From NCBI RefSeq assembly GCF_009931435.1, contig NZ_CP043414.1: a stretch of 64,000 bases of DNA. The stretch is one strand, 5' to 3'. The position numbers were made by a program, and so were the translations under genes. Origin of the DNA: Escherichia coli (lineage in GTDB: Bacteria > Pseudomonadota > Gammaproteobacteria > Enterobacterales > Enterobacteriaceae). A model generated the notes under the pieces. That model made no database searches. It was not told the origin of the DNA and saw only the letters and a program-made list of their open reading frames with translations. How positions within the stretch are numbered: the first letter of the stretch is position 1; the number at the start of each line of letters is the position of its first letter. This document shows, piece by piece, positions 12,419-56,200 of this stretch.

Positions 12419-15400
12419 ATGGCTTCGACAAATGCGCAGCAAATAAAAAATAATGATCAAAACTCTTTATGCGGTCTGGGTGACAAAATACGCCGCCTGG
12501 CCGCCGGAGTTTGTTTATTCACACAAATTTTTTTCCCCGTCATGGTGACGGCACAAAATGTGGTACACGCTAAACCCCAGATGACAGTTTCATCTCCTCC
12601 CCCTCTTACAGAAAATAAAACCGTACCTTACACGCTTGGCGCGCTGGAATCAGCGCAAAGTGTTGCTGACCGGTTTGGTATTTCACTGGAAGAGCTTCGT
12701 CGTCTTAATCAGTTTCGTACTTTTGCCCGCGGCTTTGATAACGTGCGTCAGGGTGAAGAACTGGATGTTCCGGCAACAACCTCGCAGAGAAGTCATGAGC
12801 TACAAAATGCCGTATCACCGGCGAATGCCGAAAACACTCTGGAGAATCAAATAGCCAGTACTTCACAGCGAGTTGGCACTCTGCTTTCACAAGATATGAA
12901 TAGTGAGCAGGCGAGCAGCATGGCGCGTGGTTGGGCGTCTTCAGAAGCCTCTGGCACGATGACTGATTGGTTAAATGACTTTGGCACCGCGAAAATCTCT
13001 CTGGGCGTGGATGAAGATTTTAGCCTGAAAAATTCGGAATTCGACTTCCTGCATCCATGGTATGACACACCCGATTATCTGCTCTTCAGCCAGCATACTC
13101 TTCACCGAACGGACGATCGCACCCAGATCAACACCGGTTTAGGCTGGCGTTACTTCACCCCCAGTTGGATGTCAGGCATCAACCTGTTTTTTGATCACGA
13201 CCTGAGCCGCTATCACTCCCGCGCGGGACTTGGCGCAGAATACTGGCGTGACTATCTGAAGTTGAGCAGCAATGCTTATATCGGCCTGACCGGCTGGCGT
13301 AGCGCACCAGAATTGGATAATGACTACGAAGCCCGCCCGGCTAACGGCTGGGATTTACGCGCAGAAGGCTGGTTACCTGCCTGGCCGCATCTGGGTGGAA
13401 AACTGGTCTATGAACAATACTATGGCGATGAAGTGGCGCTGTTTGACAAGAATGATCGTCAAAGTAATCCCCATGCTATTACCGCAGGCCTCAACTATAC
13501 CCCCTTCCCGCTTCTGACTCTCAGTGCAGAACAGCGTCAGGGGAAACAAGGTGAAAATGACTCACGGTTTGCCGTTGATCTGACCTGGCAACCCAGCAGC
13601 TCAATGCAGAAACAGCTTAACCCGGACGAAGTGGCCGGACGGCGCAGTCTGGCCGGTAGTCGTTATGACCTGATTGATCGCAACAACAACATCGTTCTGG
13701 AATACCGCAAGAAAGAGCTTATCCGCCTGAGTCTGCTGGACCCAGTGAAAGGGAAATCGGGAGAAATAAAACCGCTGGTTTCCTCGCTACAGACCAAATA
13801 TGCCCTGAAAGGCTATAAAATCGACGCTGCTGCGCTGGAATCTGCTGGAGGAAAAGTCAGCACTTCCGGAAAAGATATCACGGTCACGCTGCCTGGTTAC
13901 CGCTTCACTAACACCCCGGAAACCGATAATACGTGGCCGATAGACGTTACCGCTGAGGATGTAAAAGGTAATCTGTCACATCGTGAGCAAAGCATGGTCG
14001 TCATCCAGGCTCCGGCATTAAGCCAGAAAGATTCTCTGTTATCCGTTAATCCGCTAACCCTGGCAGCAGATAAAAAATCGACTACCACATTGACTGTGAC
14101 TGCGCACGATTCCGACGGTACCCCGGTTCCGGGGCTGGCACTGCAAACCCGCAGTGAAGGTGTTCAGGATATCACTCTGTCTGACTGGACAGATAACGGG
14201 GATGGTAGCTACACACAGATGCTGACTGCAGGAACGACTTCAGGTTCAGTAACACTGACACCGCAACTTAACGGTGAGAGTGCGGTAAAAGAATCCATCG
14301 TCGTTAATATCGTCCCTGTTGTCTCATCCCGCGACCATTCTTCAATATCCATAGATAACATATTGTATTATGCCGGAGACGACATCAAAGTCAGGGTAGA
14401 ACTGAAAGACGACAAAAATAAACCGGTTGAATATCAAGAAGACGCGTTGGTAAAAGCCGTCACTGTCGAGAACAGCAAACCTGGCGCCACGGTTGTCTGG
14501 CACGAAGAGCATCCGGGCGTTTATGCAGCGAATTATCCGGCCCATAAGCAAGGAGCAGCCCTGAGGGCACAACTTAGCCTTCACAACTGGAATACTCCTC
14601 TGCAATCGCATATTTATAATATCGAAGCAAACCAGAATAAGGCTCACGTCGCCACATTATCCGCAACGAATAATGACGTTTACGCCGATAAAAAGACGTT
14701 TAATACCATCACTATTAACGTCACTGATGAGAGTGATAATCCCCTGAGAAATCATCAGGTCACCTTTAAGAATGAGAAAGGAAGCGCGGAATTTGTAGAA
14801 CCGACGCAGCAAAATACTGATGCACATGGTGTTGCCACAATCAACATGATAAGTCAGGTTGCGGAAGAAAATACGATTAGCGCTACGCTGCCAAATGGTT
14901 CTACTCAACGGGTAACTGCGAAATTTGTTAGCGATTCGAATACGCCAAAACTCAAACAACTGGTTGCCGCGCCAGATACCATTAGTGCTGGTAATAGCCA
15001 GGGTAGTACCCTGACCGCCACCGTCACAGACTTTCATAACAACCCGTTAAAAGATATGAAAGTGAATTTTGTGGCACCAACTGACTCGCAACTGGACAAC
15101 ACGACCGCCACAACTGACCAGTCCGGGATTGCGCGGGTGCACCTGACCAGTTCAAAAGCAGGTAACTATACCGTCGATGCCTCGCTTGAGGCGGATAAAA
15201 ATATTCACCAGTCGGTTACGGTTACCGTGGTCCCAAACAGGGAACAATCGGTAATTATTTTGAATGCCGGATCGGGCAGTACGATTGCTAACAATACAGA
15301 TACCGTTACCCTGACTGCCAGTGTGAAAGATGTTTATGGACACTCACTACCGGATGAGGATGTGAAATTTACCTTGCCAGCATCTATGACAGGGAACTTC

Positions 15401-17659
15401 ACGCTAAGTAGTGACACCGCTCGCACCGATTCAAACGGCAATGCCGTGGTCACATTGCGAGGCACAAAAGCGGGTGAGTTTACAGTGACGGCGACACTGA
15501 GCAGAAATAATACCAGTGCTAATCAGCTAGTCTATTTTATTGGGGATACAAGCAGCGCGCAGCTCCAGCCGCTGACTGCCTCATTATATACCATAGTTGC
15601 TGGCAACAGTACGGGGAGTACCCTGACAGCAACGATCCTGGACGCTTACCAAAATCCGCTTAAAGACCAACAGGTCACTTTCCAGAGTAACGATGTCACA
15701 CTAAGCGGAACAGAAGTCACCACCAATACGCAGGGTCAAGCGACGGTAATAATGACCAGCAATATTGCCGGACAACATAACGTAGTGGTGAGCCGGAAAG
15801 CGCAATCATCCGATAATAAAACGTTTAGTTTATCAGTGCTCCCGGATGAAAGTTCGGCGAAGATAATAAGTATAACCGGAGCCGAAAAAACGATAATGGT
15901 TGGCGAAAACATCACGCTACGAATACACGTACAGGATGCGTTTAATAACGTCATAGCCGGTCAACGCGTCAGATTAAGTGCGCTGCCAACCGCTAACATT
16001 ACGATAGACGATACGGCTTACACCGATAATAACGGCTATGCGTACGTTAACCTTATCAGCACCCAGCCTGGGGTCTATCAGGTGACAGCATCGCTGGACA
16101 ATAACAGTAGTCGTAAAGTTGACGTGAGTGTGGCAAAGGGCAAACTCGAGTTAACATCATCGAAGCCAGAAACCACGGTCCATAACAGTGAAGGTATTAC
16201 ACTGACCGCAACGGCAAGAAATATTCAGGGTGAATTGATGCCGGGGCAAATTATCACCTTTAGCGTAACACCTGATGGTGCAACGCTAAGCAATACAGGG
16301 GAAATCCTGACTGATCAGTCAGGTCAGGCCAAAGTGACGCTGACCAGTGACAAAGTCAATGTATATACCGTTACGGCCACAATGGGCAAAGACGTTCCCG
16401 TTCAGAGCCAGGTGACGGTTGCGGTTAAGGCTGATGCTACAACGGCACATGTTGTGAGTGTAGTGGCTTCTCCTGACACCATAATCGCCGACGGGGTTGA
16501 TAGCAGCACCATCACTTCACGAGTAGAAGATGATTATGGATTCCCGGTTGAAGGTGTCGACGTTAGTTACAGCTTAGACACCAAAGGCAGCCCGGTGATT
16601 AATAATCCAACTACGCGTACCGATCAGTCCGGGCAAGTCACGGCGACAATAACAGGTACATTGGCAGAAGCTCTAATTGTCAATGTTCAGGTCCCTGGCA
16701 CAGTCCACAAATCCGCAGCCATTACATTGATTCCTGGTACGGCAGATGAAAGTAAATCAACATTGAAATCTAGCGTTAGCTCTTTTATGGCTGACTTCCA
16801 GGAGAGCGCGACACTTACGTTAATATTGCAAGACAAGTACGGTAACCCGATAGTGACGTCTGATCATCTGGAATTTGTCCAGTCAGGTGCCTACGTGAAC
16901 CTCCTGAAGTTGAGCAATATTGATTACAGCCAAAGAAATTATGGCGAGTACACCGTCACTGTCACTGGCGGCGTAGAGGGCAGAGCGACTCTCATTCCTA
17001 TGCTGAACGGTGTTCATCAAGCAAACTTAAGCATATCACTGGATCTTGTCCGCTCAATAAAAGACATGCACGGTCATGTAACAGTCAACAACCATACCTT
17101 CACAACGGCTACATTCCCCAGTGAAGGTTTTATAGGGGCGTACTACACACTTAATGATGACAACTTTGAAGCGGGTAAAACCGTTAGTGATTATATGTTC
17201 ACAAGTTCACAGAGTTGGGTGTCTGTCGATGCTTCAGGTAAAGTTTCTTTCACAAATACCGGCGACCAAACTTCAGTCGTAATAAGCGCTGTTCCCAGAC
17301 AAGGAGGTACAACCTACCAGACATTAATTAAGCTGAAAGGCTGGTGGGTGAATCATGGGAATCAAACCAATATCTGGCTAACTGCCAATGCGTTCTGCAA
17401 CGCGAAAAGTGATGGATATAATCTTCCTGGCGTCGCACATTTAACGTCTGGCGAAAACAAACGCACGTTGGGATCGCTATATGGTGAGTGGGGGAACGTT
17501 GGGGAGTTTTCCAGTGATTCGCAATTTACCGCGGGTGCTTACTGGACCAATCAACAGGATGATTACAATAGACACGTCTATGTGCAGATGCTGACGGGCA
17601 GGATTGGAAGCGACGCAGATTCCAGCGCTCAACTAACTGCCTGCCGTAAATCACTTTAA
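12419..17659 (+). CDS. inverse autotransporter adhesin (intimin/invasin family): LysM, beta-barrel, many Big domains, C-terminal lectin-like domain (1746 aa)
   Basis: N-terminal LysM-like segment (YTLGALESAQSVADRFGISLEELRRLNQF), repeated Ig-like modules (TISAGNSQGSTLTATVTD / TIVAGNSTGSTLTATILD), Cys-containing C-terminal domain. Confidence 0.8.
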   Translation: MASTNAQQIKNNDQNSLCGLGDKIRRLAAGVCLFTQIFFPVMVTAQNVVHAKPQMTVSSPPPLTENKTVPYTLGALESAQSVADRFGISLEELRRLNQFRTFARGFDNVRQGEELDVPATTSQRSHELQNAVSPANAENTLENQIASTSQRVGTLLSQDMNSEQASSMARGWASSEASGTMTDWLNDFGTAKISLGVDEDFSLKNSEFDFLHPWYDTPDYLLFSQHTLHRTDDRTQINTGLGWRYFTPSWMSGINLFFDHDLSRYHSRAGLGAEYWRDYLKLSSNAYIGLTGWRSAPELDNDYEARPANGWDLRAEGWLPAWPHLGGKLVYEQYYGDEVALFDKNDRQSNPHAITAGLNYTPFPLLTLSAEQRQGKQGENDSRFAVDLTWQPSSSMQKQLNPDEVAGRRSLAGSRYDLIDRNNNIVLEYRKKELIRLSLLDPVKGKSGEIKPLVSSLQTKYALKGYKIDAAALESAGGKVSTSGKDITVTLPGYRFTNTPETDNTWPIDVTAEDVKGNLSHREQSMVVIQAPALSQKDSLLSVNPLTLAADKKSTTTLTVTAHDSDGTPVPGLALQTRSEGVQDITLSDWTDNGDGSYTQMLTAGTTSGSVTLTPQLNGESAVKESIVVNIVPVVSSRDHSSISIDNILYYAGDDIKVRVELKDDKNKPVEYQEDALVKAVTVENSKPGATVVWHEEHPGVYAANYPAHKQGAALRAQLSLHNWNTPLQSHIYNIEANQNKAHVATLSATNNDVYADKKTFNTITINVTDESDNPLRNHQVTFKNEKGSAEFVEPTQQNTDAHGVATINMISQVAEENTISATLPNGSTQRVTAKFVSDSNTPKLKQLVAAPDTISAGNSQGSTLTATVTDFHNNPLKDMKVNFVAPTDSQLDNTTATTDQSGIARVHLTSSKAGNYTVDASLEADKNIHQSVTVTVVPNREQSVIILNAGSGSTIANNTDTVTLTASVKDVYGHSLPDEDVKFTLPASMTGNFTLSSDTARTDSNGNAVVTLRGTKAGEFTVTATLSRNNTSANQLVYFIGDTSSAQLQPLTASLYTIVAGNSTGSTLTATILDAYQNPLKDQQVTFQSNDVTLSGTEVTTNTQGQATVIMTSNIAGQHNVVVSRKAQSSDNKTFSLSVLPDESSAKIISITGAEKTIMVGENITLRIHVQDAFNNVIAGQRVRLSALPTANITIDDTAYTDNNGYAYVNLISTQPGVYQVTASLDNNSSRKVDVSVAKGKLELTSSKPETTVHNSEGITLTATARNIQGELMPGQIITFSVTPDGATLSNTGEILTDQSGQAKVTLTSDKVNVYTVTATMGKDVPVQSQVTVAVKADATTAHVVSVVASPDTIIADGVDSSTITSRVEDDYGFPVEGVDVSYSLDTKGSPVINNPTTRTDQSGQVTATITGTLAEALIVNVQVPGTVHKSAAITLIPGTADESKSTLKSSVSSFMADFQESATLTLILQDKYGNPIVTSDHLEFVQSGAYVNLLKLSNIDYSQRNYGEYTVTVTGGVEGRATLIPMLNGVHQANLSISLDLVRSIKDMHGHVTVNNHTFTTATFPSEGFIGAYYTLNDDNFEAGKTVSDYMFTSSQSWVSVDASGKVSFTNTGDQTSVVISAVPRQGGTTYQTLIKLKGWWVNHGNQTNIWLTANAFCNAKSDGYNLPGVAHLTSGENKRTLGSLYGEWGNVGEFSSDSQFTAGAYWTNQQDDYNRHVYVQMLTGRIGSDADSSAQLTACRKSL

Positions 17660-35599: not shown

Positions 35600-36148
35600 T
35601 TATTGATACTGAACCTTGAAGGTCGCATCCGCATTAGCAGCACCTGGGGTTGCGGCACCGGTTGCAAAGTAACGCGCCTGGAACGGAATGGTGTTAGTAC
35701 CGTTATTCAGGGTTGATTCTGCACTAAATGTCGCACCGTCCAGCGCCAGCGCAGCACCGGTTCTGTCCAGAATTTGCACACCAACGTTTGTTGCGCTACC
35801 TGCAGCAGAACTCTGCAGAGCCAGTACATCAGTATGCGTAGCATCAATTGCCGTACCTAAGAAGGCAACAGCGGCTTTTGTAGCAACAGTGGTATCGCAA
35901 TCATTCAGCTGAATGTTAAAACCAACGGCAGAGCTGGTTGCTCCAGTCTGCTTCAGGCTAGCGGTACGAACCTGTCCTAACTGAACGGTTTGATCAGCAG
36001 AGCCTGCATCAACTGCGCAAGCGGCGTTAACAACTTCCCCTTTGAAGTGAACGGTCCCACCATTTACCGTCGTAGTATCGGCCAGAGCCGCTGCGGAACT
36101 GAGGGACAGAGCCGACAGAACAACGATCGCCAAAGTTTTAATTTTCAT
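35600..36148 (-). CDS. fimA: type 1 fimbrial major subunit (182-aa precursor)
   Basis: [23 protein letters not shown] signal peptide followed by FimA sequence; start at 36148. Confidence 0.9.
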
Positions 36149-36266
36149 GCTGCTTTCCTTTAAAAAAACTGTTTCTAAATCGACATGGGCAGTCGTTCTG
36201 TACACTTTGTTTTGAAACGAATTGGACTGCCAACACTGCACAGTTTTCCCCCAAAAGATGAAACAT

Positions 36267-36580
36267 TTGGGGCCATTTTGACTCATAGAGGAAAGCATTA
36301 CGCACGAACTTTCTTAGTTTATTATTTGGATTTATATTCTATTAATACATTATTTTATAGATTTTTATATTGAACACGGTGGTTTTTGGAGAGATGAATG
36401 AGGAAGTTGCTTCGAGACACAGAAACGTTAGCTTTACCTATAGCGGAGGTGATGTGAAATTAATTTATAAGAGAAACAATTTACATATCAAACAGTTAGT
36501 TGCTTTATGTCGTTTTTTTATATTTTTATGCTTGAGAACAAATACAAAACTTTTTTATGATATGGACAGTTTGGCCCCAA
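36267..36580. promoter_or_regulatory. fimS: fimS invertible phase-variation switch (314 bp) bounded by 9-bp inverted repeats
   Basis: TTGGGGCCA at 36267-36275 and its reverse complement TGGCCCCAA at 36572-36580, between fimE and fimA; AT-rich interior. Confidence 0.85.
36532..36562 (+). promoter_or_regulatory. sigma70-type promoter inside fimS (-35 TTGAGA, 18-bp spacer, -10 TATGATA), reading toward fimE and away from fimA
   Basis: Hexamers at 36532-36537 and 36556-36562 on the plus strand next to the fimE-proximal inverted repeat. Confidence 0.5.
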
Positions 36581-36627
36581 TTGTCTTATATTTCCTTATC
36601 TTTTCATATTATTATCAATAAGTTACA

Positions 36628-37224
36628 TCAGGCATCTTCTCTTTTTAATTTTTCGTTTATGAGATTATTTCTTTCCCATAATCCGGCAAAACGTGCAGCA
36701 TTACTGGCGGTATAACGCACAGTATGGCGAATATTTCGATGCCCGAGATAATCCTGAATTAAACGGGTATCTGCACCACGCTCCGCCAGTTCATAACCGC
36801 AAGCATGCCTTAACATATGAGGATGAGTCTGCGTCACGGTTCCAGCTTCAATACCGGCATCGCGAATAATGCGATAGGCCTGCTGGCGAGAAAGTCGACT
36901 CCCGCGGCGAGAAATAAATATGGCGTCGGTCTGGTCAGCGCCTTTCCAGTTAATACGTTCCTGGGTCCAGCGCTCCACAGCTTCACGCTCATCAAAACGT
37001 AACGGGTGAACGGTAGAAAATCCGTTCTTCAGTCGGCGAATATTTATTCGACCTTCGTTAAGGTCAAGATCCTGATAATGCAGATCAAGCAGTTCACTAA
37101 TACGCATCCCATGCCGATATGCCAACAAAATTAGGCAATAATCTCTGGCTCCCGTTGCCCCGTAACAAACCGCCTGCATCATGTCCTGAACTTCTTTACC
37201 GGTAAGATAACGACGTTTACTCAC
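36628..37224 (-). CDS. fimE: tyrosine recombinase, fim switch regulator (ON-to-OFF bias), 198 aa
   Basis: Phage-integrase-family ORF adjacent to fimS. Confidence 0.9.
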   Translation of the reverse strand: MSKRRYLTGKEVQDMMQAVCYGATGARDYCLILLAYRHGMRISELLDLHYQDLDLNEGRINIRRLKNGFSTVHPLRFDEREAVERWTQERINWKGADQTDAIFISRRGSRLSRQQAYRIIRDAGIEAGTVTQTHPHMLRHACGYELAERGADTRLIQDYLGHRNIRHTVRYTASNAARFAGLWERNNLINEKLKREDA

Positions 37225-37701: not shown

Positions 37702-38304
37702 CTATAAAACAGCGTGATGCTGTCGTCCTCTGGCTCTATCCCAGATGCCGTAAAAACGCCCTGCATTGCTGGCGGTATACCAGACAGTATGACGAATATT
37801 GCGATGCCCAAGATAATCCTGGATAAGTCGTGTATCTATTCCCATATTCGCCAAAGCAAAACCACACGAATGGCGTAACATATGCGGATGAATCTCCAGT
37901 GATAACCCAGCATTACCACCAGAAGTCGAGATAATATGGTAAAACTGTTGCCGAGAAAGCGGGTTCCCCTTACGTGATAAAAATACCCACTCGCTCTCAG
38001 CATGCGGATAAGAAGTACGTATACTCAACCAGTTTTTTAAAGCCTGAACTTCTTTGTTCAATAGCGGGTGCGTTGTTGAAAAGCCTTTTTTTAATCGATG
38101 GATATAGATACACTTTGCCTTAAGATCAATATCCGAAATCCTCAATCGGCAAATTTCACTCGCCCGGAAACCATGAATAAAACAAAGCAAAGTCAGACAA
38201 TAATTACGTGCTGCATGAGGCCCGGTATTTGCTGCTTTAAGGAGTGACTCGATTTCACTATGGGTCAGGAAGTTCCTTTTTTTGTTATCAGCCTTATTCT
38301 TCAT
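37702..38304 (-). CDS. fimB: tyrosine recombinase, fim switch regulator, 200 aa
   Basis: Paralog of fimE (HPHMLRH.CG..LA..G.DTRLIQDYLGHRNIRHTV). Confidence 0.9.
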   Translation of the reverse strand: MKNKADNKKRNFLTHSEIESLLKAANTGPHAARNYCLTLLCFIHGFRASEICRLRISDIDLKAKCIYIHRLKKGFSTTHPLLNKEVQALKNWLSIRTSYPHAESEWVFLSRKGNPLSRQQFYHIISTSGGNAGLSLEIHPHMLRHSCGFALANMGIDTRLIQDYLGHRNIRHTVWYTASNAGRFYGIWDRARGRQHHAVL

Positions 38305-44757: not shown

Positions 44758-46872
44758 TTAATCAGCCACTAATAGCGGACTAGGGATACCAGATGATGAA
44801 ACAAACAGCCCTTTTACGGCACGGGTTGCAGCCACATGCAGTAACGCGCGCTCATTAAATAATGCATCACGCTGTTCAACGGGATCATCGGATGCTAATG
44901 CTTTTATTTCCGGCACAACGCCTTCGTTAATCCCCACCAGGAACACATACTGGAACTCAAGCCCTTTAATACGGTGCATCGTTGCAACTCGCACGCCTGG
45001 GCGTGCATCGCTGTCACCGCTATCATTGCCTAAATTAAATGTCTCAATTCCGGCGTCATTGAGTGCTGATGCGTAGCGGTCACAAGCATGTTTAGTACGC
45101 GCAGTAATGCAGATATCCTGAGAACGAACCTGATTCGCCAGCAATGCCTGAATTTGCTTGACGAGTGTTGCAGCCTCTTCTTTGAAATCTGCCGCATGCG
45201 TAATCATGGGCTTTTCCCCGTGCAGTAATGACAAATAATCATTACTGGTATCCGCTTCGCCATCGAGGTTATCAACCTTCACACCAGTTAACAGCCCAAC
45301 AGCAAATTGACGCGTCTCTTCTGTGGTCCGATAGTTAATCTTCAATTTTTTACTGCGACGACCACGGACGTTAATACCACACTGACCAAGAACGACCTTA
45401 TTGCGATAAATACGCTGATGCCCATCCCCGACAATAAACAGATCGTTGGGCGACTCGGGAACCAGGCTGCGAATAAGAGTAAATGCCGGGGCACCGATAT
45501 CTTGAGCTTCATCGACGACAATACTGCTATAAGGTAGTTGGACCTGCTTTTCTTTAAACAGAACAATAGCCTCATGCATGGCATCGCCCATTTCGCGCAG
45601 TTTGGCACGCGCCATTTGTGCTCTGAATTCTTCGAAAACTGGCCAGATTTTCGCCCGTTGAATACGGGATAACGCTGTACCACGTCCAACCCGGCTGACT
45701 TTGAGGTATTCCTCCCGGGTGTAAACCGCATTTGGCTGGACAACGCGTTGCCACTCTTCAGCATAGAAATTGTCAGGTAGCCCCAGTTCGGCAGGTGCCT
45801 GCTGCAAGGCATAGTTCCAGCATTTACGTCGCCCTTCATCGCTGTCGTATACCACGCGGAAATCATAACCGTGGCGTTTTAGTTGGTCGCTCATCCAGGC
45901 ATCAATGTTAACGACGTCAATACGCGCCATCTCTTCTCGCGTACACAACCGCTGGAGATTAGCGCGAATATCTGCCGCCAGGTTACGCGTAAAGGTCGTG
46001 AAAAGTACCTTCTTACCGGGTTTATCTACCAGACGCTGAGATAACCACCGCGCACGGTGCATTGCAACAACCGTTTTCCCTGTACCTGCACCGCCCAGTA
46101 CTCGTACCGGACCATTAGCGGGCGACTCCACCAGTTTTCGCTGGCTCGGGTGCAGAAATACACGCCATTTTTCTAAAGGCGCATTAAGCATCTGCAATAG
46201 TTCCTGTTCATTTTCAACGACATGGAAGCGACGTTTACTTCGTTCAATCGCCTCCATAAAGTCGTTGGTATCAACAGGCTCATCACGATGATCGTTAAAC
46301 TCTTCCAGCACTTCCTGGTAATCCAGCCCTTCTGCCAGCCAGTGCAGAGGTTCCCAGGCTTCTGCTGGCATTATGCTTTCAAGTTGATTAAGCCCGGCTT
46401 CATCGGTAAGCGCCATCACCTGATCAATAAAGACAGGCGGCACACCCAGGGCCAGAATCTGTTCCGCGCTGTAAGCTGCGAAGAGTTTCGGTTTATCAAC
46501 CACCGTTTCCGCTGCCGGTTTGATATAGCTAATATCAATGACCTGAATCGCGCCAGTAACCGGGTGAATCGAACAATCATGCCGCCGCGCCCAGTCATAT
46601 GCTTCGTCGTGTTTATCCACCCACATCAGCATATACAGAGCACCCTGTTCAGGTTTCAGAACAATGCCGCGATAAGTTTGATCGATTCGCACCGAATGGA
46701 CATTTTTACTGCGCGCATCGTGGATCTTTTCATAGTTAAGTCCATTACTGGTCGGGTCCTGACGGAATTTGGAGATGAATTCCTGCACCTTTTTTTGCTG
46801 TGCTTTTGGGATCCGCGCGAATGCGCCCAGAAAACCATCAGAAAGTGCCACCTTGGGCGTTTGCACCGTCAT
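44758..46872 (-). CDS. UvrD/Rep-like superfamily 1 helicase (704 aa), last gene of defence-like operon
   Basis: Q-motif and Walker A (LHPSQRKLV...GGAGTGKT), VVDEAQD, GDGHQRIY, YRTTEE, MHRIKGLEF; ATG overlaps upstream stop (ATGA). Confidence 0.8.
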   Translation of the reverse strand: MTVQTPKVALSDGFLGAFARIPKAQQKKVQEFISKFRQDPTSNGLNYEKIHDARSKNVHSVRIDQTYRGIVLKPEQGALYMLMWVDKHDEAYDWARRHDCSIHPVTGAIQVIDISYIKPAAETVVDKPKLFAAYSAEQILALGVPPVFIDQVMALTDEAGLNQLESIMPAEAWEPLHWLAEGLDYQEVLEEFNDHRDEPVDTNDFMEAIERSKRRFHVVENEQELLQMLNAPLEKWRVFLHPSQRKLVESPANGPVRVLGGAGTGKTVVAMHRARWLSQRLVDKPGKKVLFTTFTRNLAADIRANLQRLCTREEMARIDVVNIDAWMSDQLKRHGYDFRVVYDSDEGRRKCWNYALQQAPAELGLPDNFYAEEWQRVVQPNAVYTREEYLKVSRVGRGTALSRIQRAKIWPVFEEFRAQMARAKLREMGDAMHEAIVLFKEKQVQLPYSSIVVDEAQDIGAPAFTLIRSLVPESPNDLFIVGDGHQRIYRNKVVLGQCGINVRGRRSKKLKINYRTTEETRQFAVGLLTGVKVDNLDGEADTSNDYLSLLHGEKPMITHAADFKEEAATLVKQIQALLANQVRSQDICITARTKHACDRYASALNDAGIETFNLGNDSGDSDARPGVRVATMHRIKGLEFQYVFLVGINEGVVPEIKALASDDPVEQRDALFNERALLHVAATRAVKGLFVSSSGIPSPLLVAD

Positions 46873-49800
46873 TTGTCACCTCCGGACAGATGTTGCAATG
46901 TATTTTCGTCAATTGGCCCGAATGCAACGTGCCAACCCCTGGTTGTGAATAATGGAATAAATTCTTGATTATCAATAATCAATGCCCATTTTTGTGATGG
47001 CCAGGCGAGATCGGCTTCCGCAATAATTTCACCTTCATCATTTTGCAATTCGTAGCCGAGAGTCGGCGCAGAGAGAGAATGAGACTGAAGCAACGCGATC
47101 TCTTCAGCGCTTAATAAGCCAAACTCAATAATCTCAGCCCAACTTTCATCAGTCTCTGGTACTGCCTCTGGCGTTGCCGTAACTTTAACGTCAACGCTTT
47201 CCTGCGGTAAATGTACGGCTTTACGGCTGGTAAAGGTCATATCCGGCAGGAACTGTAACAGGTTTACCAGTCGCCAGAAGCCATTGAGTCCCGCTTCATA
47301 ACCGTCATCCTGCGTATAGCGATCGTCAAAACAGATATGCAAACGCAGCCAGCTGCGCATTTGTGCGACACTGGTCGTCGGTTTAATGGCTTGTTGTGGC
47401 AACACCGAAGCCAGCTCAATAAATTGCTGCGATGAGTTACAGCTATCGAGTAAACCACCAAAGACAAACGGTTCGTCTGGCAAAAGCTCTGCTAGCCGCC
47501 AGTCTGGCGCGTTTTCCTGCATTTCATAGGCATACTTTTGTTTCGTTCCCGCGTCCTGTGACTTCTTCACATCCAACCACACCCAGGCATGTGCAGCAGC
47601 CATTTTCTGCCATAACTGCGTTCTTCCTCCCGGCTCGGCGAGATAATCCAGCAGCAGTGCAAAACTGTTGCGTTCCCGGAACGACGCTTCAAGGGCCGCA
47701 AAGTTGGTATCGTGAAACAGGTTATAAAACTTAGGCTGTTTCATATCCGGGTTATGCCCAAGCCCCAGGACATCCTGAACATGTTTAAGCCCAGGCTCTT
47801 TGAGATCGGCCCACGTGACTGTCCACACCCAGAAATTACCGCTATCCCGAATCGCCTGGCGTTTTTGCACATCCTCTGCGACGCTATTTTTGTGAAACGC
47901 AAAGCCATCAAGGAAAATAGCTACCGGTTTAATGGCATCAGACTGCATAAGCGGATATAGCACGTAATCCGGGCGACAAGGGATCCCCACAGCCTCTTTA
48001 GCGCCTAAATCCACCTGAGCTTTAAGATGCCAGCTCATCATCGGTTCGCTGCGGGTGTTAATAATCCACCCAGCGCCCTGATGCGCGTAACTGCGACTGA
48101 CAATCAGGTTTTTATTTTCTTGCAGGCAGCTAATAAACCGTTTTTCCAGCTCACTGCCCATCATGGCTTCGAGGGAAATGTTTTTGATGGAATCAATTAC
48201 CCGTATCGAATCTCTTGCCTGCAAAATTTTCGCCAGCAAGAGACGCGCCTGATCGCGGGAGACATACTTCATGCGCCCACGGTCACGGTAAGCGTAAACG
48301 CAACGATAACAACCATCTTTATGCGTATCATGGTTGCAACTGCATTCCACTATCGCCTGATAGGCCAGTTCAAGTAATTTCAGCAAATTGTCGGGAGTGC
48401 GCATCAGCTCTTTAAGAGAACCAGTCCCCCCCGGGACGGTATCGTAAATCACCAGATACTGCCGCCAGGATTCGCCTTCATTTTCCGGCTCGCGGTACAC
48501 AACGCCTTTCAGGTGATCGACATTCCCCTTGAAGTAATGTTTAAGGCCGAGCTGGATCGCCGCCCCAAGAGAAGCCTCCACGACACGGTCATTACTGTAA
48601 CTGCTTACCGGGAGCAGAATTCGCAACGCTTCTGACTCCAGCTGGCGATAGAGATAGAGATAATCTTCGAACTTCGCCTTTTCCGGTTCCGTGCGATATT
48701 TGCAGCTCAAATCATGACGTGGTTCATGATCGCGAGGACGCTGTACCATGCCGCACCCCAGGCAAACTTTAAACCCGGTTCGCTTCTTCGCTTCTCCGGC
48801 AATCATCAACTCATTGGCATCATCCGCCATTTTGCCGAAGTTGATATCCCGCAGGGTGACTTTGCTTAAAAATTCAAAACCAAACGGAACTTCGCCTTCC
48901 TCAATCGCGTATGCCGCCGATACATCTTCTTTTTCGAAACTAACCAATAGCTGACGCTGGAAGAAAGCAGGTTCACGGCTGTCGCTCTCGTCGCTGATCT
49001 GGCTATCACGTGCGCTGGCGCGGGCATACACCTGGCGAAGTTTCAGCAGCGTGGTTTTTTGTCCGGCGTCGGCCCACCCCGGTGTGCCACATTTCGGGCA
49101 ATATTTATGCTGGTCGCCCGTCTGGTCGATATTTTCGCTGTAGTTACAGTGGCTACAGATACGCCAGTTCTCCGGCTCAGAGACCTTCAGGTCTATCTGC
49201 TCAATTTCAACTTTATGCCCACCGGCATAGAAATTATTCAGCGGAGCCAGCTCAGCCAGCGCCGTTGATGCCGGGCGTTCATATTCGAAAGTGGTGTTTT
49301 GATATTCACGCGCTTCCCCGCCTTCTTTACGCCGCCAGAGCACAGAACGTAACGTAATACCGGCTTCCGGGAAGGCGTAGTTAGGCAGCAGACCTTCATC
49401 CGTGAGGAAATTCAGCGTCTGCTTATTGTTGATTTGATTGACTAGCGCCATCAGCGCCTGCCGTTCTGAAGTTAACTCGCGCATATCGCTGTCAAAGTTT
49501 TGATCGCGCGGCGCGTTCTCCAGCTTATCGATACTGCGCTTGAGTTTATCGATGCGTGAACGCAGAGATTTGCGATCTTCCACCAGCAGTTTTAACGCCT
49601 CTTCGATACGCTGCACCAGAGAGCGTTGTCCTGGCGCGCCCTGAAGATAAGACAACAACTGTTGGCGAGTTTCTGCGGCAAGATCGGGGAAGATCGCCGT
49701 AAATTGTGCAGCAATCTCCGCATGATGCTGTTCGATATATCTCAGTAAGTTATACGGAAAACCCGATTTACGCCCGAACTCCAGCTCATCCAGCATCTGT

Positions 49801-52800
49801 TTGACGTTTTTACAGATAGCGGATTCTGGTACACCGGTTTTCACCCAGTTATCCATACAAAAAGCTGCCAGCTGGCGTTCGAGAATAGCCGTTGCATTGA
49901 GGAAGACGCCAGGAGCCTGCACCTGGCCCTGCATCATCTCCAGCGGTTCTTCAAAGAAAAACTGATCGTGCGGGTTCCCTTCTGCCACGGTAATGTTTAA
50001 CGCGTTACCATCTTTACGACCGGCGCGACCAATACGCTGCAAGTAGTTGGCCTGAGCAGGTGGGACAGAACAGAGTAAAACGGTGGAAAGATCCCCAACG
50101 TCAATACCCATCTCCAGCGTCGGTGTTGCCGACAACAGGTTGATATTCCACGGTTGGTTGCCACGGTAGAACGATTTTTCGGTGGCTTCGCGATCTTCAC
50201 GGCTAAGCAGCCCCGTGTGTTCTGCGCCCTGCACGCGCGCGATGTCCATGTTCTCCCAACGCCAGGTCGCCATATTGTCGACTTCCTGGTAACGACCTTC
50301 ACAACGTAAAGAGAGACAAGGCGCATTACGCCACTGCCAGCCTTGATCGGCCGGAGCCCGGACAACCTCACGGCAACATGAGCAATTAAGCTGAACGACG
50401 TCACGGCTCACCACCAGCGCCGAAGGCACCAGTCCCCAGGCTTCACGCCCTTTGGTGTCAAAATCTTTTACTACTCCGGCTATTTTCAACGCCGTAAACA
50501 GGCGTCGTAACACTGTTTCCGCAACGCTACTGATAAACAGATTATTGCCGTTACTCAGCGTGCGATTGATCCAATGCTGATACCAACTGGGGTTAGACTT
50601 CGCGCCAATCAGGCGATGGAAACCATTAATTTTTTCAAACGACGCATAAGCCGGTTTACGCGTTTTCGGACCGATAGAAGGCATATAGCGCGATGTACGC
50701 TCTTTTTGCGTCATCATAAAGGTCGTGCCATCACGGCGATAACTTTCGAACGCCGGATGCATAACGGCCCCGGCCTGGCGTTGATACCAGATAACCCCCA
50801 GCGCCAGGTGCGCTACCTGCTCGACGCTCACACCGGACATCTCATCACCCAGCTCTTCACAAAGCTGTTGATGCAGGGCGGTAATTGCCGGATTAAAGCG
50901 TTCTTTATCCACTCCGGCAACGGCATAACCGGTGGCTTCCAGCGTACGTCCGATACGCGCGCGCAGGGTAAATTCGCTGTACACCTCCCAGTCGAGGCGC
51001 AGGGAAACCAGCTCCGGCAGATCGGAGTTCTCCGCCAGTTTGCCTTCATTTTTCAGTGTCTGATAATCATTCAGCCACTGCATATTTGGTGCGATGAAGT
51101 TCGCTGCAAAATGAGCATCGTCCGGTGAACGTTCACGCGTTTGTTGGCAAACACGCGCCGCGAACGCATCCAGCGGTAATGTCTCTTTTTCGCCAAGAAC
51201 ACTGGCGATTTGCCCACGAATCATCAGCGGCCAGGTTCGGGCAGTAAAAAAGCTGGCACGATGCGCGGCGTCTTGTACCGAGTCAGAAAACGTAATCAGC
51301 TTTTTATGTTCGTTGAACTGGCTGCCATAAAGCTGGTGAATCATCACCGCCGACAAACTGGCAGCCCGTGACCCCAGAATCGAAATCCCCTGTTTGCTGT
51401 TGCAGTACGGGCATTCATTAGCAAACTCCAGCTCGTCCTTACGCTCTTTGAGCATATCCGGGATCAGTACCTGCAACAGTTCCGTATGACCGCAATGTCC
51501 ACACTGGACGCTGGACTGTCGGTTCAGTTTCAGACAGGTAGGGCACAGTTTCTGGTGTGCGCCACTGACCGCTTTTTCGTTGTTATCCGGGAAAGCAAGG
51601 ACGATGGAGCGCCCTTTTTCAAAGAACTGGCGATAAATGCCGTCGAGGTCTGTTTCCAGCTGAACGCTTTGCCCATGACGCAGGCTGGCCCAGCCAGTTG
51701 CGTGGCAGTCACGGCAGTGGATAACCGGCAAATAGTGTTCGCGGTCTTCCACCGCCACATCATCGGCAAACACCAGTCTCGGCGTTTTCGCCACGCTGGC
51801 GACCAGACGACGCATCTCACGAAGCCACAACTGGGAGCGCAGTTGCACAAACGGCAGCACCGGGCGCGCTTTCTTCGCCTGGAGACGTTTTTGCCGATCG
51901 TGTTCCATTTCCGGTACTTCGAGACGTGCCTGTGCGATCAGCGCCAGAATGCTTTGCAGCACGCGTCGGGCATGGTCGGCGCTTTCTGCCAGCATAACCT
52001 GGAGATTTTCCAGACACTCTCGTTCAGAGAGGATCCCGCCTTGCAGATCATGGAGTAAGACATGCATCACGCTGTGGCGGCGTAACAGTGACCCCAGCGC
52101 AATACGCTTTTCACGCCCGTCGTCGCTCTCCAGATCGTCCGGGAGTTGCAAGTCGCTGTCGGGGAACCACAAAGGGATTTGCCCGTTAAGATACGCTACC
52201 GGGGTAGCGTAACTCTGCGGGTCCAGGGCCGAAGCGACCTCCTGCCCCGGATACTGACTGTACGCAATGGCGTAATCCTGCAAGTACTCCGCTGCCGTGT
52301 AGCGATCTTCGCGAATAACGGCGTCATCGGTAAACGGCTGGTCAAAGATTGTTTTTGCGTAATCGAGCAGTTGCCCCAGTTCGTCGCCGACGGTCGCTGA
52401 TGTCCCGACACAGGCGAATCGTTGGTTATCCACACCTATGTGATGCTTCAGACGTCGCACCAGACAGGCCAGATCCGACCCTTGCGCGCCATCAAACGTA
52501 TGCAATTCATCCACGACCAGGTAGCGCAATGAACCGGGCTGGTTGTAACGCCAGAGCGGCTGATCGCCAGGGCGCATCAGCAGGTAGTCGAGCATTTTGT
52601 AGTTGGTCAACAGGATGTCCGGCGGGCTTTCGCGCAGCGTGTGCTTGCAGGTAATGACCTTTTCTGCCGACATTTTTTTGCTGGGTTCGATTTCGCTGTC
52701 GCCGACAAACAGGCCGACGGTCACCTTGCCATGCAGTTGTGGATCGCTGGCGATGGTTTTGGCGAAACGGCTGGCCTGATCGGTTGCCAGGGCGTTCATC

Positions 52801-53210
52801 GGGTAGATGATAATCGCTTTAACCCCGGCTTGTGACGCGCCCGCGCAGTGGTTGAGCAGCGGGAACATAAAACATTCTGTTTTACCGGAGCCGGTACCGG
52901 TAGCGACCAGTGTCGGCTGTGGCGCGTCGCTTCCCAGACGCTGAAATGCCCGGGCCTGATGCGCGTGCGGCGGGAACGGCAGCGTCAGATTAGGGAAAAA
53001 ATTCAGCGGTAAGTCACTTTTACGAAACGGCAACTGGGCGGAAAGGTATGGTCCTTTCAGCAGCGTTTCCGGCTGGGCCAGAAATTGCTCCAGCATTGAG
53101 ACATTATCGTTATTCTCACCGTTAAACAGCGGGCTGTTTAGCGGGAACGCCGCCCGTAAAAAGGCGGCAACGCTGTCGGCGACCTGCCGACTGACAACGG
53201 ACGGCAACAT
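46869..53210 (-). CDS. giant DExH-box helicase with Zn-ribbons, DUF1998 (MrfA-like) domain and C-terminal Vsr/DUF559-like nuclease fold (2113 aa)
   Basis: Motif I GTGSGKT (~aa 105), motif II DELH (~234), TSAT (~270), motif VI QRIGRAGR (~1057); DUF1998-type IYDTVPGGTGS...CSCNHDTHKDGCYRC (~1590-1640); RPDYV...VAIFLDGFAFH...D..KRQAIRDSGNFWVWTVTWADL (~1745-1805). Confidence 0.8.
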   Translation of the reverse strand: MLPSVVSRQVADSVAAFLRAAFPLNSPLFNGENNDNVSMLEQFLAQPETLLKGPYLSAQLPFRKSDLPLNFFPNLTLPFPPHAHQARAFQRLGSDAPQPTLVATGTGSGKTECFMFPLLNHCAGASQAGVKAIIIYPMNALATDQASRFAKTIASDPQLHGKVTVGLFVGDSEIEPSKKMSAEKVITCKHTLRESPPDILLTNYKMLDYLLMRPGDQPLWRYNQPGSLRYLVVDELHTFDGAQGSDLACLVRRLKHHIGVDNQRFACVGTSATVGDELGQLLDYAKTIFDQPFTDDAVIREDRYTAAEYLQDYAIAYSQYPGQEVASALDPQSYATPVAYLNGQIPLWFPDSDLQLPDDLESDDGREKRIALGSLLRRHSVMHVLLHDLQGGILSERECLENLQVMLAESADHARRVLQSILALIAQARLEVPEMEHDRQKRLQAKKARPVLPFVQLRSQLWLREMRRLVASVAKTPRLVFADDVAVEDREHYLPVIHCRDCHATGWASLRHGQSVQLETDLDGIYRQFFEKGRSIVLAFPDNNEKAVSGAHQKLCPTCLKLNRQSSVQCGHCGHTELLQVLIPDMLKERKDELEFANECPYCNSKQGISILGSRAASLSAVMIHQLYGSQFNEHKKLITFSDSVQDAAHRASFFTARTWPLMIRGQIASVLGEKETLPLDAFAARVCQQTRERSPDDAHFAANFIAPNMQWLNDYQTLKNEGKLAENSDLPELVSLRLDWEVYSEFTLRARIGRTLEATGYAVAGVDKERFNPAITALHQQLCEELGDEMSGVSVEQVAHLALGVIWYQRQAGAVMHPAFESYRRDGTTFMMTQKERTSRYMPSIGPKTRKPAYASFEKINGFHRLIGAKSNPSWYQHWINRTLSNGNNLFISSVAETVLRRLFTALKIAGVVKDFDTKGREAWGLVPSALVVSRDVVQLNCSCCREVVRAPADQGWQWRNAPCLSLRCEGRYQEVDNMATWRWENMDIARVQGAEHTGLLSREDREATEKSFYRGNQPWNINLLSATPTLEMGIDVGDLSTVLLCSVPPAQANYLQRIGRAGRKDGNALNITVAEGNPHDQFFFEEPLEMMQGQVQAPGVFLNATAILERQLAAFCMDNWVKTGVPESAICKNVKQMLDELEFGRKSGFPYNLLRYIEQHHAEIAAQFTAIFPDLAAETRQQLLSYLQGAPGQRSLVQRIEEALKLLVEDRKSLRSRIDKLKRSIDKLENAPRDQNFDSDMRELTSERQALMALVNQINNKQTLNFLTDEGLLPNYAFPEAGITLRSVLWRRKEGGEAREYQNTTFEYERPASTALAELAPLNNFYAGGHKVEIEQIDLKVSEPENWRICSHCNYSENIDQTGDQHKYCPKCGTPGWADAGQKTTLLKLRQVYARASARDSQISDESDSREPAFFQRQLLVSFEKEDVSAAYAIEEGEVPFGFEFLSKVTLRDINFGKMADDANELMIAGEAKKRTGFKVCLGCGMVQRPRDHEPRHDLSCKYRTEPEKAKFEDYLYLYRQLESEALRILLPVSSYSNDRVVEASLGAAIQLGLKHYFKGNVDHLKGVVYREPENEGESWRQYLVIYDTVPGGTGSLKELMRTPDNLLKLLELAYQAIVECSCNHDTHKDGCYRCVYAYRDRGRMKYVSRDQARLLLAKILQARDSIRVIDSIKNISLEAMMGSELEKRFISCLQENKNLIVSRSYAHQGAGWIINTRSEPMMSWHLKAQVDLGAKEAVGIPCRPDYVLYPLMQSDAIKPVAIFLDGFAFHKNSVAEDVQKRQAIRDSGNFWVWTVTWADLKEPGLKHVQDVLGLGHNPDMKQPKFYNLFHDTNFAALEASFRERNSFALLLDYLAEPGGRTQLWQKMAAAHAWVWLDVKKSQDAGTKQKYAYEMQENAPDWRLAELLPDEPFVFGGLLDSCNSSQQFIELASVLPQQAIKPTTSVAQMRSWLRLHICFDDRYTQDDGYEAGLNGFWRLVNLLQFLPDMTFTSRKAVHLPQESVDVKVTATPEAVPETDESWAEIIEFGLLSAEEIALLQSHSLSAPTLGYELQNDEGEIIAEADLAWPSQKWALIIDNQEFIPLFTTRGWHVAFGPIDENTLQHLSGGDK

Positions 53211-56200
53211 CAGGCGCTCTCCTTATCTTGTGCAAAGAACGCCCAGGCCACTTTGTAGTCGTCTTCGCGATCCGGCTTGATAAACGGTGCCTGCCAGGTG
53301 ACGGTACGGCGCTCGCCTTCGTCGCTGCGGGTATAGTCATCAAAGGTGACGCTGACGGTACCGGTTTGCAAATGTTTGACATCATCCCAACCGATGGCTT
53401 GATCGGTGCAGTCACCGCCGGTCCACTCCGGGCTGTCGACGTTAAAGACAAAGCCGTTTTTCAGGTCAGCTTTACGCGCGGTGCGAGGCAAGCCAACGCC
53501 CACCAACCCTTTGCTTGGGGTAAAGATGATGCGGCCGTTTTGGTCGTACCAGGTGTCCGCTTCGTACTGACGCATCACCGGGAACTGTACACGGTAAATG
53601 GTAAGCAGCTCTTCGAGGGTTAACCCCAGCGCCTGTGCCACCAGAACGTCGATTTCCACCAGCGCCTGACGACGACTGTAGTCGGAGCGTAAGGCACAGT
53701 TACGCTGCCACTCTGGGGTCAGATTGGCGAAGAAATCTTGTGGGAGCTGCGGGAGATCGCGGCTCCAGCGTTGGGTATTGAAGTCTGGGGTGTAGCAGGA
53801 TTGCCAAAGGCCAGCATATACATCATTTACAGAATTTAATGATAATACTAAGCAGTATAATAATGCCTTTTGTCTCGGATTGAATAATACGTATGAGAAA
53901 CCATCAAGCATCTGATGTAAGTTTGCCTTGCCAGTAGATTTACAAATAAAATCAAAAGGTAAAGAAAAACACATACCTGAATGTTCGAGTAACTGATTCT
54001 GTGAGCTATAGCAGTAAGAACGTACTGCGTTCATGTGACTTATTTCTGGCGGATAAATAGCACTAATTAGTGTACGTTCCCCCGATTGAGCCAACATGGC
54101 TCTGATAGCTAAGCGATAATAATCTGTTACCTTCTTCGGTTCATCTTCAGCCAGTTCAGTCCATGTAACGCATGGAGTACGTTTGGCATACTCCTGTGCA
54201 TCACAGGCTGGAATATAGTTAGTGCGCGGCAAATAGTCGTCGGGCAGAGTTAGCAAGTCTAGGTTATCGTATGCTTTATTCGTGTCACAAACCGCTCTAG
54301 GCGTATTGTAGAAAGGATTGCCAACAAAAAAATGAGGGCCAGACAAAACCCATTGTGATGCTTCTTCCGGGAACTGTGTATGTCGCTCAATTGTACCATC
54401 GCTTTGCTGATTAGTTTCATGCCACATTTCTAGAGAATAATATTGCCCCTGCAAATCACCTAATCGCCTAGGTTGTTTCGCAAACTTTTCAAGTACTGTA
54501 ACTAATTGTGTAGCATGCAACGCAGGAAGACGGGCTTCCTGGGCAGGAGTTCCGACAACATCATAAAGACGCGCAAAAAGACCCAACTGTTTTAAATTTA
54601 TAGGCACGACTCGATCGAAATGTCCCTGGAAATTCCATTTAACTTTTACTTTGCCATCGATTTCAGTTTCTTCTTTTATCCCCGGGACAATGCCTTCCCC
54701 TTTATGTTCAAAACACGCGTCAATAGTTTGAGGAATAAATAAATTTGCTATATTTGAGAATGCCACTATCTGAGAATAGGGGCCATATACATTGATGCTA
54801 AATCTAGTGTGATTATCTACTTCAGCAAATATTTTAACTTCATTGGCAAATTGAAAATGCGCCCTCAACCTCGGGTACACTGCCGCACGCAACTGCCCAC
54901 CTTTCGGGTCATCATAAATCCCTTCCGGGTGCAGGAAGCCTGCCACGCCTTTCTCTGCCCCTAAGCGCCATGCCTGCGGCAGGAAGCATTTATACAAGTT
55001 GGTCTGCACCCCGCGCAGTACCGGGTAGTTTTGCTGCGCATTGAGGAAGTTTTGCATCCCTTCACAGCCTTCATACTCGCTGCGCCAGGCCGCTTCCAGC
55101 GCTGGGATCTGGTTAAAGGTATCAACACGCAACGTTGCCAGCTTCGATGCACTCAGCTTACGCAGCACAAATTCCGGCTCGTAATCACCCAGCACGCCCG
55201 CTTCCTGCCATTCCACTTTTAGCCACGGCGGGTTTCCGAGCATCAGGTCAAAACCGCCGCGCTCGGCAAACAAGTCGCAGAACTCCAGATCCCAGTGGAA
55301 GAAACGGTGCTGCTTTCTCAGGGCATCGACAATCGCCAGACGCGGCAAATGGCGGAACAGCACATCGGTTTTCAGACGACCAGCAACGGAAAACAGCGAA
55401 GACTCTTCTCGCAGCAGGCCTTCTTCGGCAAACAGATCGCCAGTGGTGTGATCCGCAACTTCAGTGACTTTTTCCGTGATTACAATCCCGTCGAGCAGGG
55501 TTTCAATCTCAAACAACCAGGTACCGCGATCCGGTAGCTCATCAGCTTTGTCGATCGGCCAGAACCACAGCGCGCACCAGTAGTCCATCACCCAACGCAG
55601 CTTCTGGTAGGCGCTGTTATCTTCAAGACGACCGCTAAAGGTTTCATCTTTACTGCTCAGCGAAGAACGTGTCTGCTCGCTGTTTTCTGCCGGCCACACC
55701 GGGTAGCTGTCGGCGGTTTTCAGACGTTCTGCTTTAAGTTGCTGGCGATAGGTGTTCCACAGTGCTTCCACCTTTTCGCTGATACGCTGCACATCAGCAA
55801 TCTCATGCCCGGCAAAGCTTTTAATAAACTCTTTGCGCCAGCTGTCCAGCGCTTTGAAGTCATCCGGATAACGCTGCTTAACAGTTTTATCGCTGTAATT
55901 AGCCATACCGCCGTCGGGCAGCAGGAAGTGGAAAATCTGCGTCTCTTCACGCGGCGTGTTCATCGCCAGTTCGACCGGCTCGCTGTTAAGCCAGCTCGGA
56001 TCTTTGACTTTTTTGTAGGTCAGTTCGCTCTTGTTGAACACCTGACGGCGCGCGCCCACCAGCGAGTTACCGCAGTGCAGCTGGTAACCAAACCACGGTA
56101 CAAAGGCATCGCCACTGATGGCGTTCAGCCACAGTGACACTTCCGCCAGCTCCACCGCCACCGGGTTTAAGTCCACGCCGAAAACGTTGTTGTCGGCAAT

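Follow-up and report, generated by a model that had tools for sequence, protein, structure and literature searches.

Few phase-variation systems have been studied as thoroughly as the fim switch; in K-12 the fimS switch with its FimB and FimE proteins was reportedly described by Abraham et al. 1985 and Klemm 1986. The question raised by the present locus was in which of its two orientations the switch had been recorded in a stretch of 64,000 nucleotides of E. coli DNA (the 64-kb window, hereafter the window), and what this orientation can tell about the culture and about the allele. We are highly confident that the element in the window is the fimS switch of the type 1 fimbrial operon and that it has been recorded in the OFF orientation.

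The fim region and the invertible element

We observed a complete type 1 fimbrial region on the minus strand of the window, in the order fimB, fimE, fimS, fimA-fimH. FimB, FimE and FimA were identified with NCBIfam profiles, each above the curated cut-off (Table 1), and fimI, fimC, fimD, fimF, fimG and fimH were seen as open ORFs downstream of fimA on the same strand. The window FimB was identical to K-12 FimB at 199 of 200 positions (R196H being the sole change), and it retained the HxxR and LGH...Y motifs. FimE was identical to its K-12 counterpart at 193 of 198 positions (5 changes), the catalytic HxxR and LGH...Y motifs again being kept, and the fimE nucleotide sequence was the same as that of E. 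coli N96. By homology to K-12, FimB is a predicted tyrosine-type DNA invertase that would switch in both directions, while FimE is predicted to be an invertase of the same type with a bias for ON-to-OFF.

Table 1. Features of the fim region, with positions in the 64-kb window
Feature	Position	Strand	Remarks
fimB	37702..38304	-	200-aa ORF; NF007370, 456.7 bits (cut-off 221), full length
fimE	36628..37224	-	198-aa ORF; NF007371, 444.5 bits (cut-off 222)
IHF site I, outside the switch, next to IRL	36613..36625	+	TATCAATAAGTTA, matches the consensus WATCAANNNNTTR; identical in K-12
fimS, invertible element	36267..36580		314 bp; between fimE and fimA; called OFF
IRL, fimE-proximal 9-bp inverted repeat	36572..36580		TGGCCCCAA on the plus strand, reverse complement of TTGGGGCCA
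PfimA, placed by K-12 homology	36532..36561	+	-35 TTGAGA, 36532-36537; 18-bp spacer; -10 TATGAT, 36556-36561; directed toward fimE
IHF site II, inside the switch	36486..36498	+	TATCAAACAGTTA, matches the IHF consensus
Lrp/Fis-binding part by K-12 homology	36276..36381		most diverged segment; 81% identical to K-12
IRR, fimA-proximal 9-bp inverted repeat	36267..36275		TTGGGGCCA on the plus strand
Leader, switch to fimA start codon	36149..36266	-	118 bp; 95.8% identical to K-12
fimA, type 1 fimbrial major subunit	35600..36148	-	NF011741, 185.6 bits (cut-off 140); ATG at 36148

The element lies in a 478-bp non-coding stretch between fimE and fimA. An earlier note on this DNA had described it as a 314-bp segment at 36267-36580 bounded by perfect inverted repeats, and both the coordinates and the repeat sequences were found to be correct. 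IRL and IRR were invariant in all 9 switches that we aligned (the Citrobacter element included). About 25 bp inside each end of fimS was invariant as well, and the recombinase-binding sequences beside the repeats matched K-12. The 9-mer repeat had just two copies in the 64-kb window, against an expectation of 0.78, and two or more copies were seen in 18 of 100 shuffles; the count of the repeat pair alone is within chance expectation. The feature was accepted as real because of its homology and gene context, and not because of the 9-mer count. The window fimS could be aligned end to end with that of K-12 (88.9% identity over 314 bp, with 2 gap columns) and with that of E. coli N96 (99.7% identity), and it carried neither a deletion nor an insertion or IS element.

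When the interval 36149-36627 was examined for the IHF consensus, exactly two matches were found, and these were sites I and II. The position of site I agrees with that described for IHF-1 (PMC9993118). The 27 bp around site II were 96% identical to K-12, and site II overlaps the GrpQ footprint in the window, as has been reported for this footprint (PMC11724981). No Rfam family and no tRNA was found when all 64 kb of the window were scanned.

The fimA promoter

The earlier note had placed the two promoter hexamers on the plus strand, pointing toward fimE, and our promoter scan located them at the same positions. The TTGAGA-18-TATGAT arrangement matched 10 of 12 consensus positions and ended 10 bp before the fimE-proximal repeat. 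The same note had called this the only good sigma70 promoter inside the element. We found it to be the best match lying wholly inside, but it was not the only one, since two 9/12 matches were also present (36342-36371 on the plus strand and 36491-36462 on the minus strand). The scan returned 4 sites in total as compared to 2.6 +/- 1.9 in shuffles, which is not above expectation. As the consensus scan was not significant by itself, the assignment of PfimA was based on homology to the K-12 switch. PfimA has been placed inside fimS (PMC2647292). Both hexamers and their spacing were identical in K-12, PCN033, E69 and the clade I genomes, with 4 substitutions in the spacer. The promoter and start positions in the window are thus putative ones, transferred from K-12 by homology, and the spacing would put the start of transcription near 36568. 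The primary mapping paper for the fimA promoter and transcription start is said to be that of Olsen and Klemm 1994. A literature search for the TTGAGA and TATGAT hexamers together with fimA found nothing useful.

A further match, TGGACA-18-TATATT (36563-36592, plus strand, 10/12), straddles the fimE-proximal repeat and hence exists in the OFF arrangement only. The second hexamer at this place is TGTATT in K-12 as against TATATT in the window, and the window site is a consensus match only.

Orientation of the recorded switch

We observed that the minus strand of the window was colinear with the MG1655 record (NC_000913.3) from fimE through fimS into fimA. The state of the MG1655 record was determined from published assay definitions, with the digests performed in silico. 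With BstUI and the primers OL4/OL20, the MG1655 record gave 540+188 bp as recorded and 294+434 bp when flipped, the published fragments being 539+187 for OFF and 433+293 for ON (PMC9993118). SnaBI gave 162+440 bp as recorded and 406+196 bp when flipped; here the published sizes are 440+161 for OFF and 403+198 for ON (PMC11724981), so that the agreement of the flipped form with the published ON sizes is approximate. The HinfI digest could be applied to the window directly, because the HinfI site is conserved. With the primers CMD1258/1259 the window yielded 411+238 bp as recorded and 128+521 bp when flipped, which may be compared with 411+239 for OFF and 128+522 for ON (PMC6727828). The restriction assay, one of the checks that had been proposed, thus gave OFF with BstUI and SnaBI on the MG1655 record and with HinfI on the window, and ON for the flipped forms. 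The GrpQ footprint motif has been published as it reads in the phase-ON orientation (PMC11724981); it was found on the opposite strand relative to the fimE-to-fimA direction in both MG1655 and the window.

The published assay definitions and the colinearity with MG1655 are in agreement, and the phase-OFF orientation claimed in the earlier note was borne out. Alignment against the reference switch, which had been named there as the check that could overturn the claim, supported OFF, and the overturning result was not obtained. None of our results contradicts the OFF call. The primers CMD1247/1248 (PMC6727828) converge in the OFF arrangement; the phase that they detect is unstated in the paper, and they were set aside.

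The orientation would have to be read as ON if the true fimA promoter were at the other end of the element. The AT-rich element does contain the weaker matches at 36342-36371 and 36491-36462; however, the only one of these on the minus strand scores 9/12, and over 190 bp separate it from the fimA-proximal repeat. Under three assay definitions, published independently of one another, the arrangement is OFF, and reviews have PfimA disconnected from fimA in the recorded arrangement (PMC2647292). A promoter at the other end is therefore, in our judgement, almost inconceivable, and we retained the OFF reading.

The OFF orientation among E. coli genomes and the state of the culture

We further estimated how often this orientation has been recorded. 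The query was a 651-bp region and the database 5426 complete E. coli genomes, colinearity being taken as at least 80% of the query. The locus was present in 4719 of the genomes. The arrangement was colinear with the window (OFF) in 4455 of these 4719, while 245 matched the version flipped in silico (ON) and 19 fitted neither. Among the 4700 classifiable genomes, OFF accounted for 94.8%, so that this state is on record for about 95% of finished E. coli genomes, the K-12 reference among them. The type 1 fimS system is already known, and the state seen here is the common one. As both orientations occur among homologous switches in complete genomes, inversion is evident at the level of the family; for the window's own allele (only OFF among 14/14) inversion is inferred. 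E. coli E69 (CP089930.1) served as the positive control for an ON record. Its flanks and repeats were the same as in the window and its interior was homologous (88.6%); however, the interior was reversed with respect to the flanks, so that the promoter end abuts fimA. Among the genomes that fitted neither orientation was E. coli strain 10 (NZ_CP048330.1), in which an IS1A interrupts fimE-fimS-fimA.

A share of about 95% OFF fits with the dominance of FimE-driven ON-to-OFF switching (PMC9993118, PMC9096935, PMC2647292), most cells being OFF through the bias of FimE (PMC9993118, PMC9096935). What an assembly records is the orientation of the majority. Most cells of the sequenced culture were therefore probably OFF, and the culture probably for the most part non-fimbriate. 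A minority ON subpopulation is to be expected in it. E. coli grown in broth is normally OFF.

It could be argued that the orientation says little about the culture, having been picked by the assembler from a mixture or dictated by a reference-guided step. Inversion of fimS proceeds at measurable rates and cultures are mixtures (PMC2647292), and one path only survives in an assembly. However, the repeats are just 9 bp long, so that ordinary reads reach across the junctions and the path taken by the majority prevails, and ON does get recorded when it is dominant (as in the 245 genomes, E69 among them). Such a choice by the assembler, which we consider quite unlikely, would also be compatible with an OFF majority. 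We prefer to read the recorded orientation as that of most cells in the culture. The orientation of the switch can be read reliably from the junctions in an assembly, and is worth recording, since what it mirrors is the state of the culture rather than a fixed genotype. A strain recorded as OFF is not thereby incapable of making type 1 fimbriae.

A rare and diverged fimS allele

The allele was the one unusual feature of the locus. When the 314 bp alone were used as query, matches were found in 4693 complete E. coli genomes. Only 13 of these shared the window's allele (97.8-99.7% identity), and all others were at 90.2% or below. The neighbouring uxuR-gntP core genes also had their best matches in these genomes (97.7-98.3%), where none reached 99%. 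Strain 2013C-4282, one of the 13, belongs to cryptic clade I, for which the published ANI is above 98.3% within the clade and above 95.9% to E. coli sensu stricto (PMC10100065). The fimS of the window is thus probably a cryptic clade I allele, and the window probably derives from a clade I strain that is absent from the complete genomes. The clade I-type genomes (2013C-4282, N96, MB50, MB52, RMDEC465) resemble the window in their switches, which are recorded OFF, but differ from it in the core genes, which are 98.3% identical to those of the window at best.

In its overall build the window switch is that of K-12 MG1655: both are 314 bp long with identical 9-bp repeats, the gene order is fimB, fimE, fimS, fimA, the promoter hexamers and their spacing are the same, both IHF sites are conserved, and the MG1655 record is likewise OFF. 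The two differ in the interior. fimS was about 11% diverged from K-12, as compared to 2-4% for fimB (97.7% identity), fimE (96.3%) and the fimB-fimE spacer (96.9%), the fimA leader being at 95.8% and fimS at 88.9%. The differences were clustered in the Lrp/Fis-binding part, at the end of the element away from the promoter, and in the spacer from fimE to the repeat (36581-36627), which was 79% identical. The 135-bp K-12 probe with LRP-1 and LRP-2 maps to 36248-36382 of the window (by the primers of PMC9993118), and 20 of the 107 columns of the K-12 Lrp/Fis probe homologue that lie within fimS differed. The region of the K-12 Fis-site oligo maps to 36309-36344, with differences at 7 of 36 positions. 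Going by these substitutions, the switching rates and the bias of the window's allele may differ from those of K-12.

The divergence also bears on the assays. The BstUI (CGCG) and SnaBI (TACGTA) sites that are used to score the switch were absent from the window's allele (36290-36300, 36540-36550), whereas the HinfI site at about 36283 was kept. Because the changes in the Lrp/Fis-binding part remove sites, the BstUI and SnaBI assays would fail on this allele, while the HinfI assay would work. For the window's allele (probably that of cryptic clade I), HinfI or a junction PCR should be used rather than BstUI or SnaBI.

As can be seen from the counts, all 13 complete genomes with the window's allele were OFF, which makes 14/14 with the window itself. 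This raises the possibility that the switch has been locked OFF by mutation and that its orientation is fixed in the genotype, as it is in certain EPEC and O157 strains. Locked-OFF strains are known (PMC9096935), and the Lrp/Fis-binding part is strongly diverged. However, at a base rate of 94.8%, 14/14 OFF has a chance probability of about 0.47, and the count therefore does not speak for a different bias. The two 9-bp repeats are perfect, and next to them the recombinase-binding sequences are those of K-12. The change in FimB is a single conservative one (residue 196 of 200), the 5 changes in FimE leave the catalytic motifs in place, both IHF sites are intact, and there is neither a deletion nor an IS element. 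We also looked for the lesions of locked strains (the 16-bp deletion of O157:H7, IS insertions, loss of a recombinase) and found none of them, the element being of 314 bp and fimB and fimE being intact. Since the parts needed for inversion are intact, a locked-OFF lesion is very unlikely. From its repeats, IHF sites, promoter hexamers, FimB and FimE, all of which are intact, the switch looks able to invert.

We also considered whether the divergence of the Lrp/Fis/Fur part rewires how the environment sets the ON/OFF bias in this lineage, while the ends, IHF sites and hexamers are unchanged. We hold this to be rather doubtful. If true, it would make the allele a lineage-specific regulatory variant of the classical switch, invisible to the standard BstUI and SnaBI assays.

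Two short sequences were also searched against a set with one genome per species. An allele-specific 28-mer gave no match in this set, and a conserved 24-mer matched only E69, a contig of a Bacteroides MAG and Citrobacter amalonaticus S646. The Citrobacter element (NZ_PQMB01000003.1; 1929-2242 of the extracted locus) is a fim-type switch in another genus. It is likewise 314 bp long, and its 9-bp repeats and first 30 bp (including the -10 TATGAT) are identical to those of the window, but overall it is only about 57-62% identical. The contig CAUHML010000277.1 (3.3 kb, from the MAG of an uncultured Bacteroides) contains E. coli fimS end sequence at 3097-3120, and is most likely a binning contaminant.

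Proposed working of the switch

The mechanism given here (promoter activity, terminator, recombination and FimE bias) follows what has been published on the K-12 homologue. In the OFF arrangement, PfimA would be beside the fimE-proximal repeat and fire away from fimA. The fim structural operon would be left without a promoter, and no type 1 fimbriae would be made. The Rho-dependent terminator inside fimS would fall behind fimE, so that the fimE mRNA would be shortened and destabilised; this terminator acts on fimE in the OFF orientation only (PMC2647292). The sRNA FimR2, which is processed from the fimA 3' UTR (PMC9723502), would also not be made. FimB or FimE, each independently, would invert the segment by recombination within the 9-bp repeats, with the help of IHF and Lrp, and the inversion would place the promoter next to fimA. 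FimR2 was also considered as an RNA encoded by the switch, and was rejected, since it originates from the fimA 3' UTR and not from fimS.

Other observations in the window

Outside the fim region, a 1746-aa ORF at 12419-17659 (plus strand) was an inverse autotransporter adhesin whose N-terminal part is IatC-like; its score of 1135 bits lies under the equivalog-domain cut-off of 2400. On the minus strand, the very large genes lined up at 44758-63802 look like an anti-phage defence island. Among them are a UvrD/GajB-like helicase (704 aa), a 2113-aa DruE-like helicase with an HNH tail, a 1644-aa type IIG restriction-methylase (954 bits), a 952-aa DrmD-like SNF2 helicase, and an 857-aa ORF whose match to DruE3 is confined to the C-terminal part (profile positions 1218-2051 of 2055).
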